A program made the position numbers and the translations under genes. Positions 33,103 to 49,365 of a DNA stretch of 64,000 bases are shown in pieces; the first letter of the stretch is position 1; the number at the start of each line of letters is the position of its first letter. The notes under the pieces are model-generated. The model was not told the DNA's origin. It was given only the letters and a program-made list of their open reading frames with translations, and searched no databases. This DNA comes from Dictyostelium discoideum. Its lineage: Eukaryota. Where the stretch lies: positions 5,088,001 through 5,152,000 of the forward strand of contig CM000152.2 of NCBI GenBank assembly GCA_000004695.1, read 5' to 3'.

Positions 33103-34056
33103 ATGGAAAATATTAAAACTATTAAAGAATATATTGAAATTGGTAAAGATAGAAGTGGTAATAATTCACCAATATTTAAATTATATTATGAAAGTTATGG
33201 TGAAATTGAAGCACCAATTAAAATTATATTCATTGCAGGATTTATGTCAAGTGGGAAGAACGATTATTATAAACAAGTGGAATATTTTATGAAACAAGAA
33301 CTTGTTAATAAATGCTACCAAATTGTTATATTTGATAACCGTGGTTCTGGCAACTCTGGCACTCCCAATAAATTTTCAACATTCGATATGGCATTGGATA
33401 TGATAGAATTAATGGACCATTTAGGATGGGACTCTGCACATGTCATCGGTGCGTCCATGGGCGGCATGATTGCGTTGGAATTGGCAACGGTTATACCCCC
33501 ACAAAGAATTCGCTCACTTACATTAGCAGTAACCCACGCAGGCCATACAATTACACCCATCAAAGGTACAAAAGCAGTAACAAAATCAATTTTCACATCT
33601 GATCCAATTAAAAAATCACAAATTACAATTGATTCGTTATATTCCAAAGAGTATTTATCGAAATTGTCCATCGAAGACCCAAGTAGGTCAAATAAAGATG
33701 TTTTGACAGACATTTTCGTCGACAGATTAAAAACCTCAAAAAAACCATCACTAAATGCAATTATGGGTCATTTTAAATCAGTGTTAACTCATTACATATC
33801 TGAAACTAAATTAAAGTATATTAGTAATCAAGAATTTCCAATACAAATAATCACTGGAACAAATGATCATTTAGTTGATCCAAAGAATTCGTTTTATTTG
33901 AAATCCAAATTAAATCCTTGTGAATTTACAGTTTTTCAAGGTTGTGGTCATGCTGTAAATACTGAAAGATTAAATGATTTTAATAATTTAATTCAATCCC
34001 ATATAAATCGTTTTATACCTGATCATAATATTTTAAATCAATATTTAAAAAAATAA
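33103..34056 (+). CDS. Alpha/beta-hydrolase fold protein (317 aa)
   Basis: Single exon. The nucleophile elbow is GASMGG, preceded by VIFDNRGSGNSG (HG/oxyanion region). The late conserved block GTNDHLVD...GCGHAV is consistent with the Asp/His of the catalytic triad. Confidence 0.8.
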   Translation: MENIKTIKEYIEIGKDRSGNNSPIFKLYYESYGEIEAPIKIIFIAGFMSSGKNDYYKQVEYFMKQELVNKCYQIVIFDNRGSGNSGTPNKFSTFDMALDMIELMDHLGWDSAHVIGASMGGMIALELATVIPPQRIRSLTLAVTHAGHTITPIKGTKAVTKSIFTSDPIKKSQITIDSLYSKEYLSKLSIEDPSRSNKDVLTDIFVDRLKTSKKPSLNAIMGHFKSVLTHYISETKLKYISNQEFPIQIITGTNDHLVDPKNSFYLKSKLNPCEFTVFQGCGHAVNTERLNDFNNLIQSHINRFIPDHNILNQYLKK

Positions 34057-38145: not shown

Positions 38146-38218
38146 CACCCATTGTGGGTCTCGATCCCACGACCTGCAGCTTAGAAGGCTGCCGCAATTC
38201 CAACTTTGCTAAACGGGC
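38146..38218 (-). tRNA. tRNA-Arg (anticodon UCU), 73 nt, intron-less
   Basis: Reverse complement: GCCCGTT-T-A-GCAA-AGTTGGAA-TTGC-G-GCAGC-CTTCTAA-GCTGC-AGGTC-GTGGG-ATCGAGA-CCCAC-AATGGGT-G. The acceptor stem is 7 bp with two G·U pairs. The D-loop carries AGTTGG. The anticodon loop is C-U-UCU-A-A. The T-arm is GTGGG/CCCAC. The T-loop reads A54...A60 rather than the usual T54. Confidence 0.8.

Positions 38219-43888: not shown

Positions 43889-43891
<3 letters not shown>
38418..43891 (-). CDS. Large (~1,746 aa) type I transmembrane glycoprotein with a Cys/His-rich cytoplasmic tail; 3 exons
   Basis: Exon 1 is 43580-43891 (signal peptide MQKINFYFFVLAIISIIF; donor TTT|GTAATT). Exon 2 is 42705-43439. 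Exon 3 is 38418-42611. All phases are 0. The ectodomain has many N-x-S/T sites and Cys pairs. A single TM helix (ILLISTLVPISFILFLILLYLIL) lies about 150 aa from the C-terminus. The tail contains CGCGENLKYHCNKCPSSISNYCESLQCKNLIH. No family recognised. Confidence 0.6.
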
Positions 43892-43920
<29 letters not shown>

Positions 43921-44436
43921 CAAACCAATCAAAAAAAAAAAAAAAAAAAAAAATCTTTTTTTTGATTTTGTTTTAAAAAAATTAAAAAAGGTTTTTTGAT
44001 TTGGAGAACTCAATTACTGTGTGAAAAAAAAAAAAAAATGGCAATGGGAAAAAAATGATTAGAAAAAAAATAATAATAAATCGTTTTTTTTTAGATATAA
44101 AAAAAAAAAAAAAACAATAAAAATAAATCTCAATTAGATATAAATAATTATAAAGATATTAAATTAATTTTTTAAATTTTTTTTGGCTTTTTTATTTTAT
44201 TTTTTTTTTTGGTTTTGTTTTTTTTTTTTTTTTTGGGTCATGTTTTTTTTTTTTTTGTGGTTTAGATATATTATAAATAAAATTTTTTGAAAGTACTATT
44301 AAAAATATCATTATTACATTATATGTTTAATATGGTTGAAATTATATTGCAGGAAAAAAAAAAAATTTTTTTTTTTTTTTTTTTTTTTAAAAAGGGAATT
44401 ATATATTATATTTTAAAAAATGAGTGATCAAATGAT

Positions 44437-46280
44437 TTACCATGAACCTTCACTTCCACCATTTCCACTACCCCAATTACTACCACCATTATTACCATAA
44501 CCACCACCACCACCATTTCTATTACCCCAGCTACCACCGCCGCCACCACCATTTCTATTATTACCCCAGTTACCACCACCGCCACCACCATTTCTATTAC
44601 CCCAGCTACCACCGCCGCCACCACCACCATTTCTGTTATTACCCCAGCTACGGCCACCACCTCTACCACCACGACCACCACCACCATATCTAGAGATACC
44701 TTGTCTTGAGTGAACAGCGAATTTCTCTAAGAAATCTGGGATCTTTTGATTGGTTCTTTGTAAAATTTTAACTAAATCACGGAGGTTTGGTGTTTGGGTA
44801 GTAACATAAGACCAAGCGTCACCGGTCTTTCCAGCTCTTCCAGTTCTACCAATACGATGTACGTAATCTTCAATGTTACCTGGTAAACGATAATTGAATA
44901 CAGCTTTAACTGATGGAATATCAAGACCACGAGCAGCAACATCTGTTGCAATTAAAATACGAATTCTATGATCTCTAAAAAGTTTAAGACCAGATTCACG
45001 CATACGTTGATCTAAAAATAAAATAAAAATATAAAGTTAATATAATATGTTTTTTTTTTTTTTTATAAATATATAAACTTAATAAAATAATTACCTTTTC
45101 CACTATGTAAAACAATTGATTTAACATTTTTTTGAGTTGATAAATAATGTTGGAAATCATCACATTTATATTTTTCATTACAGAAAACAATGACAGTATT
45201 TGTTGGATCAGCGGTGAGAATTTTATTAATTTCATCATAAATGAGATCATCAGATTGGAGATCGGATAAATCATCAATATTGACAATATGTTGAGTTACA
45301 TTGATTGAACCAGTTAATTCTTGACTACCAACGGTGATTTTAATTGGATCTTTTAAGAATTTTGAAGCGAGTAATTTGACTTCTTTTGGCCAAGTTGCAG
45401 AAAACATGAGTGTTTGACGTTCTTTTGGAATTTGATCAATGAGTGATTCAATTTGAGGCATGAAACCCATATCCAACATACGATCGGCTTCATCGAGAAC
45501 TAAATATTGAACAGATGATAAATGATGTTTTCTCAAGAGATCATTGAGACGACCTGGTGTACCGATGACAATGTCTACACCATTACGTAAGATTCTGGAT
45601 TGATCGATTTTACCTAAACCACCATAGGCGCAAAGTTGACGAATTGAAGTACCACGAATTGATGTTTTACAGACTTCTTCGATTTGTTGTGCCAACTCTC
45701 TAGTTGGTGCCATAACGAGTACCAATGGGGTGGCACCGTAGGATGGACGTTTTGGAAGTGAAATGATCTTTAATAATGCTGGTAATAAGAATGCCAATGT
45801 TTTACCTGAACCAGTTGCTGCTAAACCAACCAAATCATTACCTCCTAAAATAATTGGCCAACTTTGACCTTGAATAACAGTTGGTGCTGTAAATCCTTGG
45901 AAAATATGTTGAAACATTCGTGGGAATTCATAATCTGTAAACTTTTGGAATGGGTTTGGTTGTGATTTACCCTCAATTAAAACATTATGTTTCTTTCTCC
46001 ATTCAGTTGGACTTAAAACAATATCTTCTTTGGTTTCTTCTTTAACTTCTTCTTCTTTATCCTCTTTTGATGATGATGATTTCTTTTCAGATTTCTTTTC
46101 TTCAGATTTACTGGACTTTTTAATTGATTTTGATTTTGATTCAACTTCTGAGTCTGATGATGATGATTCGTCTGATGATTCGTCACGTTTACTCATTTTT
46201 AATTTTTTTGAACTTGATTGTTCAACTTTAACTTCTAAACTTTCATCTTCTGTTTTTCTTTTACTTGATGTTGAAGGCAT
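44437..46280 (-). CDS. DEAD-box RNA helicase, DDX5/DDX17 (p68)-like (2 exons)
   Basis: Exon 1 is 45095-46280 and exon 2 is 44437-45011, with an 83-bp intron at 45012-45094 (G|GTAATT ... TTAG|). The Q-motif is [14 protein letters not shown]. Motif I is AATGSGKT, motif Ia is PTRELA, and motif II is [26 protein letters not shown] and ARGLDI are also present. The C-terminus carries [15 protein letters not shown] repeats of 36-42 bp. Confidence 0.9.
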
Positions 46281-46910
46281 TTTTTTTTTTTTTTTATATT
46301 TCTTTTTAGATTAACTATATAATTAATAAAATTCGAATTAGTAATTAAATAAAAAAAAAAAAAAAAAAGAGTGGTGTGTGGAGAAAAAAAAAAAAAAAAT
46401 GTGAGAAAAAAAACGAAAAAATTGAAAAAACTGGATTATATAACAAAAAAAAAAAAAAGAAAATAATAATAATAATTAATCTTACATTTAATTAGTTAGT
46501 TGAAGTTTATTGGATTTTTTTTTTTTTTTTTTTTTTTGTTTAAAAAATATTTAAAATCAAAGAAAGGTATAAATAAATAAATATTTAGGGTTTTCTTTGT
46601 TGAACGAGTGTGAAGACTAAAGAAAAAAAAAAAAAAAAATAAAAATAAAATAAATTTTACAACTTTTTGGCGAAAAAAAAAAATTAAAAATAAAATTTAA
46701 TTCAAAATAAATAAAATAAAAAAAACGAAAACCGACGGTTATGGTTGGATTTTTTACAAAAAAAATAAAAAAAAAAAAATAAAAAAAAAAAAAAATAAAT
46801 AAAATAAAATTTTTTTAATTCTTTGTTAGGAAACAATCTTTGTCAAAAAAATAGAGAGAGAGAAAAAAAATAAATAATAAAAAAAAATAATAAATCCTCG
46901 TGAGCCTTTT

Positions 46911-46942
<32 letters not shown>

Positions 46943-47308
46943 GTAAAAAATCCGACTATAACCGTTGGTTTTTTTAAATGTAATATTATTCAAAAATATT
47001 ATTCTAAAAATATTGGAAAAGATAATGATCCTTAAAAAAAAAGAAAAAAAAAAAAAAAAAGGAAAAAAAAATAAAAAAAAAAGGGAAAAAAAAAAAAAAA
47101 AAACAATTTATTGGAAAAGATAATAAAAAAAAAAAAAAAAAAAAAAATGTGTTTGTATTTTTATGGGCCTACTTGTTTGAAATTCTAAATAACACACAAA
47201 AAAATAATTTTTTGGTAATTCCAGATTTTTTTTTTTTATTTTTTGTTTTGCATTCTGAATAAAAAAAAAATCTTTGCCATGATCAGAAAAGGAGGAGATT
47301 AAAAAAAA

Positions 47309-47355
<47 letters not shown>

Positions 47356-47546
47356 AAATCAAAAACCAACTATTAAAATTGTTAAAAAAAAACAACAATT
47401 TTTTCTTTTTTTTTATATTAAATATAGCCCACGAAAAGATATAAATAACACATATCATATTAAATAAATAAATACATACACATACATACACATACATACA
47501 CATATAAATATACATTACATTATTAAAATATTATAGATCCAAGAAA

Positions 47547-48097
47547 ATGTCAAATAAAAATCCATTAAATAATAGTAATGGTAGTAATAGTTCAACAATA
47601 GTTAATTCAGATAAATTTTTAGTTAAGATTCATTCATTGAGTGTATCACATACATCAAAGAGTTCAAATATTTATTTAGTTGGTGATTTCGATCAATTTA
47701 AACAATTTAAAACTGAAACTAAAAAATCATCATCAACACATGGTTCTTGTATCTATAATGAATTTGCAATGGAGTTTCAATATGAAACTAAATACATTCA
47801 CAAATTGGACCACAAGCATTTTAAAATCTGTGTCTATAAAAAGAAATCAATTGGTTCTGATAAATATATTGGTAGTTTTGGTGTCGATCTTTATACATTA
47901 GCAACTGGTCCAATCTCTCATGATGTTGTCTTTCAAAAGGATAATACTGGTGTTGGTCGTTTACAATTTAGATTAGAAATGAATCATATCACTGATATTC
48001 AAATTTCTTTTAAATCAATTTTATTATCAAATTTAATGAAACAATCAAATTATCAAATTGATTATTCTTTAAAGTAAGCAATATATTTTAACAATCT

Positions 48098-48130
<33 letters not shown>

Positions 48131-48793
48131 TTATAATTATAATTATTCCTAACTTTTTTTTTTTTTTTATTTTAAAAAAAAAAAGTAAAATTAATCCATT
48201 AAAATCATCAATTATTGAAAATACAATTTGTCCAAGTTGGTATAACCAATCATCAATATTAATGAATATATCATTAAAGGATTTAGTTGATGGTAGTATA
48301 TTTTTTAATTTAAAGGATACAAAAAGTTCAAAAGTAATTGGTGAATTGAAATTACCAGTGAAATCAATATTCTCATTTGTAGAGGGTGATATAAAGATCG
48401 TTAAAACTTTATTATACAATGAAAAGCAAAATAAGATATGTGATGCTTGTATCGAAATTCAATTTAATAATATACCACAACTAGCTCAACTTAGAGGTGG
48501 TATTCAAACTGAACAAGGTATTAGAGGTGCAGAATCATTTTTCTCTGGTGTACCATTACCAAAGATAATAGGTGAAATTTCAAATGCTTCAACTTCTGAT
48601 GGTTATAGTAAAGAAGCTCAATTACAACATGTTAAATTACCTGATGGTTGGGAATCTAGAATCGATCCTGTCTCTGGTAAAGTTTTCTATTTAAATCATA
48701 ATAATAAAACAACTTCTTGGATTTCACCTTTAGAACATGCTCCAGTTAAAAAAAGAACTCCAACTGTTGTAATTTCAAATACAACTATACTTG

Positions 48794-48862
<69 letters not shown>

Positions 48863-49365
48863 TAAATAATACAAATAATATACAACAAAAACAACAAGCT
48901 CAACAACAACCAGTACAACCACCACCACAACCAGTACAACAACAAGTCCAACAACCACAACAAAAAGAAAAAGAAAAAGAAAAAGAAATTAATGCAGAAG
49001 ATTATAAAATAAGTAGACCAAAGAAAACACCAGCAACACCAGAAGAGGCAGCAGTTATTATACAAAGAACATTTAGAAATCATAAAAAACAAAGTTATAA
49101 TAAGACAATTAGAAATTCAAAGACAATAATACCTCCAAATAATGTTCAGCAACAACAACCACAACAAACTGAAAAACCAAGTATTTATCAAGTATTTGGA
49201 CAACAGATTGATCAAGGTTTACCAAATGGTTGGGAAGTTCGTCAAGATCAATTTGGTAGAGTATTTTATGTTGATCATATCAATCGTGCCACTACTTGGA
49301 CTCGTCCAACTGTAAAACATCCAAAACAACACCAACAGGCTACACTTGTACAACAAAGAAAATAA
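47547..49365 (+). CDS. C2-domain + two WW domains + IQ-motif protein; NEDD4-like architecture lacking the HECT domain (2 exons)
   Basis: Exon 1 is 47547-48073 (donor AA|GTAAGC). The intron is 48074-48185. Exon 2 is 48186-49365. Two C2-like beta-sandwich regions are predicted ([11 protein letters not shown]...IYLVGDF...; [10 protein letters not shown]...ELKLPV). WW1 is [31 protein letters not shown]. The IQ motif is [16 protein letters not shown]2 is [31 protein letters not shown]. The stop is at 49363-49365, and no downstream HECT-coding sequence exists. Confidence 0.7.

Follow-up and report, generated by a model that had tools for sequence, protein, structure and literature searches.

Between the divergent genes for a DEAD-box helicase and a C2-WW domain protein, a 64-kb stretch of the Dictyostelium discoideum genome (contig CM000152.2, positions 5,088,001 to 5,152,000; hereafter the window, from whose first letter all positions are counted) carries a pair of inverted 30-nucleotide (nt) sequence copies that is real and far beyond chance. 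The build of this repeat suggests a solitary, lineage-specific inverted duplication that arose at the DNA level, with the potential to form an RNA hairpin and with no function demonstrated; this is the explanation that we favor, tentatively and with slightly less than even confidence. Folding predictions indicate that any RNA polymerase II (Pol II) transcript spanning both arms, on either strand, would form a hairpin of 38-66 base pairs (bp), and the locus would therefore be raw material for a hairpin RNA. An initial annotation of the same DNA had proposed either a long RNA hairpin under RNA-level selection, suited as a Dicer substrate or microRNA (miRNA)-like precursor, or a miniature inverted-repeat transposable element (MITE)-like sequence; both proposals are weighed below, together with a promoter-level alternative.

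Anatomy and proposed origin of the inverted repeat

The left arm core (AAAACCGACGGTTATGGTTGGATTTTTTAC, 46728-46757, read directly from the sequence) and the right arm core (GTAAAAAATCCGACTATAACCGTTGGTTTT, 46943-46972) are each 30 nt long and are inverted copies that match at 27 of 30 positions, exactly as first annotated. The three mismatches lie at arm positions 7, 16 and 19 (plus-strand G/T, G/T and T/G), where G46734 is opposite T46966, G46743 opposite T46957 and T46746 opposite G46954; at each of the three, one arm retains a G or C. Aligning the arms also bears out the statement that all three are transitions, which would be G·U pairs in a plus-strand transcript and A·C mismatches in a minus-strand transcript. 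The 185-nt spacer between the arms is indeed A-rich (51% A, 37% T), and the whole repeat lies where it had been placed, in the 1,266-bp intergenic spacer (46281-47546) between the divergent helicase and C2-WW genes.

When the window is searched with a 20-nt core, allowing <=3 mismatches, only two sites are found, and both are the arms themselves; 100 dinucleotide-preserving shuffles give no match at all. The arm pair is also the best blastn self-match of the window (E = 1e-18). In an inverted-repeat scan for arms of >=22 nt with >=7 G/C and a spacing of <=600 bp, no complex inverted repeat other than this one was found in the window, if an ACC/GGT trinucleotide repeat in coding sequence is set aside, and three of 30 block shuffles yielded any comparable inverted repeat. 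No other copy or half-copy of the arms occurs in the window. Two candidates for additional copies were rejected: a ATAACCGT pair at 33335 and 33487, which looks like a second inverted pair, lies in the coding sequence of a hydrolase-like gene and is attributed to chance, and a degenerate third copy at ~47364 (AAAACCAAC) is a 9-mer of a kind calculated to occur ~0.6 times by chance in the window.

Complementarity does not end with the 30-nt cores. It runs further inward to give 66-nt arms (46728-46793 and 46907-46972) with six mismatches in total, first through the pairing of ACAAAAAAAA with TTTTTTTTGT and then through that of a long A-rich tract with T16-C-T19. The plus-strand stem continues without a break for 38 bp rather than 30, and is interrupted at positions 39 (U·U), 50 (A·C) and 53 (U·U). 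These three non-wobble mismatches fall in the A-rich left inner extension (46758-46793) at 46766 and 46780 (both U·U) and at 46777 (A·C, equivalent to a G·U pair in the opposite-strand transcript); the extension pairs with the T run at 46907-46942, in a register that is uncertain in such low-complexity sequence. That T run, the T16-C-T19 of the right inner extension, ends on the plus strand directly 5' of the G at 46943. A and T predominate in the loop of the extended hairpin (46794-46906, 113 nt), where G/C is confined to two small islands, GAGAGAGAGA and CCTCGTGAGCC. A long homopolymer run thus abuts the inner side of each core, rich in A next to the left core and in T next to the right one, and the match stops abruptly at its outer limits, 46728 and 46972, while inward it fades into low-complexity sequence. 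The cores themselves have internal symmetry: AACCGACGGTT forms a perfect 11-bp palindrome within the left arm (46730-46740), and CCGAC-N7-GTTGG is present on the plus strand in both arms (46732-46748 and 46951-46967), giving each arm an internal dyad. Two of the three arm-to-arm mismatches sit at equivalent positions of this inner dyad.

Several of these properties speak for an origin at the DNA level: the repeat is single in the window, it is built of a unique core plus a homopolymer run, its outer boundary is sharp, a G or C persists in one arm at every core mismatch, and the mismatches of the inner extension break pairing on the plus strand. Runs of T or A of >=12 number 119 in the 64 kb, so that complementary tracts are always nearby. 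We propose that such complementary A and T runs may have acted as microhomology for a fold-back or template switch during replication or repair, and that the unique 30 bp next to them would thereby have been duplicated as an inverted copy. The two copies would later have diverged at three G:C sites, most simply by three C-to-T changes on the plus strand, in agreement with the species' mutational bias from G/C to A/T, estimated at ~tenfold (PMC7466956).

Comparison with other dictyostelids is consistent with a recent or rearranged locus. The C2-WW start codon is the exact point at which synteny with D. purpureum begins, reaching on into the Tra1 gene, and in that species the upstream neighbor of the C2-WW ortholog is a UBX/FAF1 gene, not the helicase (compared region L001 5034-6000). 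T. lacteum and C. fasciculata have yet other genes upstream of their C2-WW orthologs; the P. violaceum contig covers just 633 bp upstream of its ortholog, and the neighboring gene lies outside it. The spacer thus coincides with a break in synteny; nothing ahead of the C2-WW orthologs of D. purpureum, T. lacteum and C. fasciculata corresponds to it, and it is therefore young or rearranged, which also counts for the DNA-level reading. No arm-like sequence (<=7 mismatches in 28 nt) was found at the C2-WW loci of D. purpureum, T. lacteum, C. fasciculata or P. violaceum. A scan of wider collections with a degenerate 19-mer that fits either arm returned 20 matches in metagenomes and 14 in prokaryote genomes, none of them the window's own locus; all lie in prokaryote-like contigs that are not A/T-rich, without A/T flanks, and ~35 are expected by chance in the 596 Gb (calculated).

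Predicted folding and the wobble-only mismatches

The claim that a plus-strand transcript containing both arms pairs all 30 bp by way of G·U agrees with the predicted folds, in which the plus-strand 30-nt arm duplex reaches -42.5 kcal/mol and its minus-strand equivalent -30.4 kcal/mol. A hairpin is predicted on either strand, and the plus strand is the better of the two. For a 301-nt stretch the minimum free energy is -74.7 kcal/mol on the plus strand (z = -8.4) and -65.7 kcal/mol on the minus strand (z = -7.0), the 66-nt arm duplexes reach -65.4 and -56.3 kcal/mol, respectively, and in contexts of 563 nt and 1,241 nt the mean arm-pair probability is 0.99 (plus) and 0.88 (minus). The plus strand accordingly folds better by 9-12 kcal/mol, and both strands fold well. 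Published criteria for D. discoideum miRNAs ask for a folding energy of < -0.2 kcal/mol per nt and >=60% duplex pairing (PMC6161686); the predicted hairpin has ~-0.30 kcal/mol per nt over its ~245 nt (calculated), with all 30 core positions paired, and so lies within both limits.

How surprising it is that all three core mismatches preserve pairing on one strand depends on the mutation spectrum assumed. Mutation accumulation in D. discoideum is biased toward transversions, with 11 transitions to 26 transversions (PMC7466956). Under this laboratory spectrum three transitions among three mismatches have a chance of ~0.03, and with a long-term transition fraction of 0.5-0.67 this would be 0.13-0.30; that three transitions all favor the same strand has a chance of 0.25. 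The joint chance of the wobble-only pattern is then ~0.007-0.075 (n = 3 mismatches), and the choice of D. discoideum's own spectrum shifts the surprise of the pattern ~tenfold. No paralogous duplicates by which the transition/transversion ratio could be calibrated were found in the window, where the other self-matches are all low-complexity.

The pattern is suggestive: it hints at RNA-level selection and does not prove it. The argument draws on three sites, on a laboratory spectrum of 37 mutations and on the stem core, and strand-biased deamination, or a plus-strand C-to-T bias, would produce the same picture as selection. Structure is moreover preserved unevenly along the arms, with three of the three core mismatches being G·U but the extension having U·U twice and A·C once. 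The initial annotation had taken the core mismatches as what RNA-level selection produces and as unexpected in a decayed DNA repeat; the low chance of a wobble-only core lends this some support, but the claim was overstated, given three sites and an extension that includes non-wobble mismatches. Three wobble mismatches are too few for claiming RNA-level selection.

Unrelated inverted repeats of comparable kind were seen at loci of two other dictyostelids, T. lacteum and C. fasciculata, with a single repeat per 13.7 kb in either case, and their presence is a further point for a DNA-level origin. The T. lacteum repeat is a perfect 28-bp palindrome with a 2-nt spacer (L043 11276-11333). The C. 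fasciculata repeat (L044 1114-1229) is 38 nt long and has four mismatches, three of them transversions and one a transition; by analogy, and as a single case, it illustrates what plain decay can look like.

Alternative explanations

A functional or processed plus-strand hairpin RNA, that is, a young miRNA-like or hairpin small interfering RNA (siRNA) precursor, is in our view somewhat unlikely. On this account Pol II would start near the G at 46538, which follows a run of 23 T (46515-46538, plus strand, 190 nt upstream of the left arm) and is a candidate start site; the transcript would pass through both arms and form the 38-bp stem with its three G·U pairs, and the Dicer-like protein DrnB, with RbdB, would cut the hairpin into ~21-nt RNAs. 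The stable plus-strand fold and the wobble-only core mismatches both favor it, and known precursors can be as stable (for ddi-mir-1183, the supplement of PMC11014262 has an entry listing -88.47 kcal/mol). Its location does so too: most D. discoideum miRNA loci are intergenic, and their primary transcripts begin with a G that lies 116-281 nt upstream of mir-5p and is preceded by <=26 nt of T-rich sequence (PMC6161686); the distance here is 190 nt. Such motifs are, however, common and hence unspecific, with T(12 or more)-G found 17 times in the window and four times in this spacer (46445-46458 and 47310-47342 on the minus strand, 46515-46537 and 46924-46942 on the plus strand). Three sites share the form T-run-GT(A/T)AAAAAAT. 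Between the arms, moreover, eight AATAAA hexamers occur in the plus-strand sequence of the 185-nt spacer, against zero on the opposite strand, and the left arm leads directly into a long A tract. In D. discoideum, A tracts mark the 3' ends of transcripts and poly-T marks the 5' ends (PMC3371697), and the hexamers may end plus-strand transcripts before the second arm is reached; hexamers and A tract together count against the precursor and for a DNA-level origin. That just three core sites are informative, and that the inner extension has U·U and A·C mismatches, likewise counts against the precursor. The arm cores were not found in the supplementary files of Meier 2016, Liao 2018 and Edelbroek 2024, and arm 13-mers occur in no relevant full text, the single match being an unrelated paper on turbot feed. 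A scan against Rfam gave no match overlapping the arms at E <=1, and at E <=10 the best matches in the spacer scored 11-25 bits, against gathering thresholds of 41-100. These sequence and Rfam negatives argue against a known miRNA, and are counted for the DNA-level duplication; a heterogeneous hairpin-siRNA locus, of a kind that strict miRNA criteria with their requirement for precisely processed 5p/3p pairs would discard, is compatible with them. A near-perfect 38-bp stem with an AAUAAA-filled loop of >110 nt looks more like a hairpin-siRNA locus. Of the Dicer or miRNA-like precursor first proposed, the long and stable predicted stem therefore survives, while the missing Rfam family, the supplements searched and the loop hexamers weigh against it. 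A stronger form, in which the locus is a newborn hairpin-RNA gene that is transcribed from the plus strand, has its stem already under selection and feeds the DrnB pathway, we regard as unlikely. An expressed and processed hairpin would add a very young locus to the small group of ~29 miRNAs of D. discoideum and would show the way in which such genes come about in Amoebozoa; the stronger form would be a snapshot of how miRNAs or endogenous siRNAs are born by inverted duplication in a lineage whose miRNAs are independent of those of plants and animals. A comparison of D. discoideum with D. firmibasis has started asking how miRNA genes arise (PMC11014262).

Quite improbable, we think, is that a small non-autonomous DNA transposon of 245 bp with 30-bp terminal inverted repeats once inserted into the spacer and left the repeat as its relic. 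The repeat has the outward form of such a MITE: it is short and lies next to genes, its terminal inverted repeats end sharply on the outside, and its A/T-rich, non-coding interior has no open reading frames (ORFs) other than spurious ones of low complexity. Arm divergence of ~10% would be compatible with an old insertion, and the coincidence of the spacer with the synteny break relative to D. purpureum would also fit. Yet no target-site duplication of 2-12 bp adjoins the repeat ends, where just A/T matches of 2-4 bp at shifted boundaries are seen, an absence that also speaks for the DNA-level duplication; the arms have no further copy in the window, and their inner portions are mere runs of A and T. 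Full-text searches returned no paper describing MITE families in D. discoideum, which also counts against this origin. To our knowledge, the published inventory of D. discoideum repeats comprises DDT, Tdd and thug elements and no MITE family, another point against it. The MITE-like element of the initial annotation is thus upheld as to its terminal repeats, small size and non-coding content, and is weakened by the missing target-site duplication and second copy in the window. A regulatory feature acting as DNA appears to us very improbable: the arms would mark divergent transcription starts, or be paired sites for a factor that binds CCGAC-N7-GTYGG or the Myb-like AACSGTT. Poly-T tracts in D. 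discoideum end ~2 bp before the transcription start site (PMC3371697, Chang et al. 2012), and T-run-GTAAAAAATCC is present on each strand, both arms directly following a T run when read outward; each arm could thus begin a transcript of its own, the two diverging, and the arms would then never share one RNA. The repeat center (46850) lies 64 bp from the center of the spacer, both arms are internally dyad-symmetric, and CAACGGTT occurs in the right one. We take CAACGGTT to be a canonical Myb-type site. An arm mismatch falls within this Myb-like core, however, leaving the left arm without the site, and the motif was not found around the C2-WW orthologs examined. The Dictyostelium core promoter has TATAAA(A/T)(A/T) ~29 bp upstream of the start (Chang et al. 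2012), but the octamer is missing ~29 bp upstream both of 46944 (plus) and of 46756 (minus), where the corresponding positions are inside pure T runs. The flanking genes have their own T runs near their ATG start codons, and the C2-WW gene has TATAAATA besides; starts at the arms would mean 5' untranslated regions (UTRs) of ~450-600 nt, and with 119 runs in 64 kb the poly-T arrangement is unspecific.

Some observations weigh in turn against an inverted duplication at the DNA level. The first 38 bp of the plus-strand stem are unbroken, and a T23-G motif of the kind at which primary miRNAs start lies on the same strand, 190 nt upstream. The joint chance of the wobble-only pattern is ~0.009 with the laboratory spectrum and 0.03-0.075 with transition fractions of 0.5-0.67. 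A transposon would leave equally sharp outer edges, and the template switch that we propose is suggested by anatomy alone. If the locus is nevertheless a DNA-level quasi-palindrome, or for that matter a transposon relic, it would be an ordinary by-product of an extremely A/T-rich genome laden with homopolymers, and of little consequence.

Genomic context and known systems

The window has ~20-25% G+C and is rich in homopolymer runs. The DEAD-box helicase gene (44437-46280, minus strand) was assigned from its ORFs and splice sites and has two exons separated by a GT...AG intron at ~45015-45083; its ATG (46280-46278) is 448 bp from the left arm. A Pfam DEAD match was obtained on a gene call from a Logan contig that is identical to the 405-aa reading frame of helicase exon 1, and the Logan contigs with this ORF end 27-90 bp upstream of the ATG. 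In the same search for other strains, no record was returned for the exon-1 ORF of the C2-WW gene, nor for either of two spurious ORFs that lie within or next to the repeat. The C2-WW gene (47547-49365, plus strand) was assigned from its ORFs and intron and from orthologs with Pfam C2 and WW domains; its ATG (47547) is 575 bp from the right arm, and TATAAATA lies close to it, at ~47440. Of the annotated relatives found for its protein, the D. purpureum ortholog is the closest, with 61% identity. An intron-free 505-aa homolog of the C2-WW protein, 57% identical, occurs in several environmental samples (JGI and Logan contigs), and these contigs look like the metatranscriptome of a dictyostelid-like organism.

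Other features of the surrounding sequence were recorded in passing. An ACAT/ACAC microsatellite (acatacacatacatacacatacatacacat, 47466-47505) lies just 5' of the C2-WW ATG and probably within the 5' UTR of that gene. About 90 bp upstream of the helicase ATG, GAGTGGTGTGTGGAG (46369-46383) forms a GT-rich island, CA-rich on the minus strand, between T runs; this island is reminiscent of the G-box/C-box elements to which GBF binds in promoters of Dictyostelium. On the downstream side of the helicase gene, the spacer holds T30-CAAACCAATC-A23 (43891-43953), a homopolymer inverted repeat with a 10-nt core. The sole tRNA gene of the window, for tRNA-Arg(TCT), lies at 38146-38218 on the minus strand; in D. 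discoideum, tRNA genes are landing sites for the TRE and DGLT-A retroelements.

Each of the origins considered has a known counterpart. With MITEs the locus shares a 245-bp unit with 30-bp terminal inverted repeats that is A/T-rich, non-coding, gene-proximal and would form a hairpin if transcribed; it differs in being without a target-site duplication, without a further copy in the 64 kb and without a known family to which it could be assigned. The DrnB/RbdB-dependent miRNA precursors of D. discoideum (such as mir-1176 and mir-1177; Hinas 2007, Avesson 2012, Meier 2016, Liao 2018, Edelbroek 2024) are likewise intergenic, with a long and stable predicted hairpin and, here as there, a T-run-G on the same strand, in this case 190 nt upstream; unlike them, the present arm cores do not appear in the published supplements searched. 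Young plant MIRNA loci offer a third comparison, with near-perfect inverted copies of a short unique segment, a locus not found in the related genomes examined, and differences that keep pairing on one strand. Such MIRNA and hairpin-siRNA loci are reportedly born by inverted duplication, in a model ascribed to Allen et al. 2004. The D. discoideum locus departs from them in that the 64-kb window offers neither a parent nor a target for it and in its amoebozoan host, and we know of no documented case of miRNA birth by inverted duplication in amoebozoans. Template-switch quasi-palindromes, finally, are short-spaced in the classic cases, whereas the spacing here is 113-185 nt and the mechanism is a proposed one; the locus resembles them in its inverted copy beside pre-existing complementary tracts, its sharp outer edge, its occurrence at a single locus and its freedom from transposon hallmarks.

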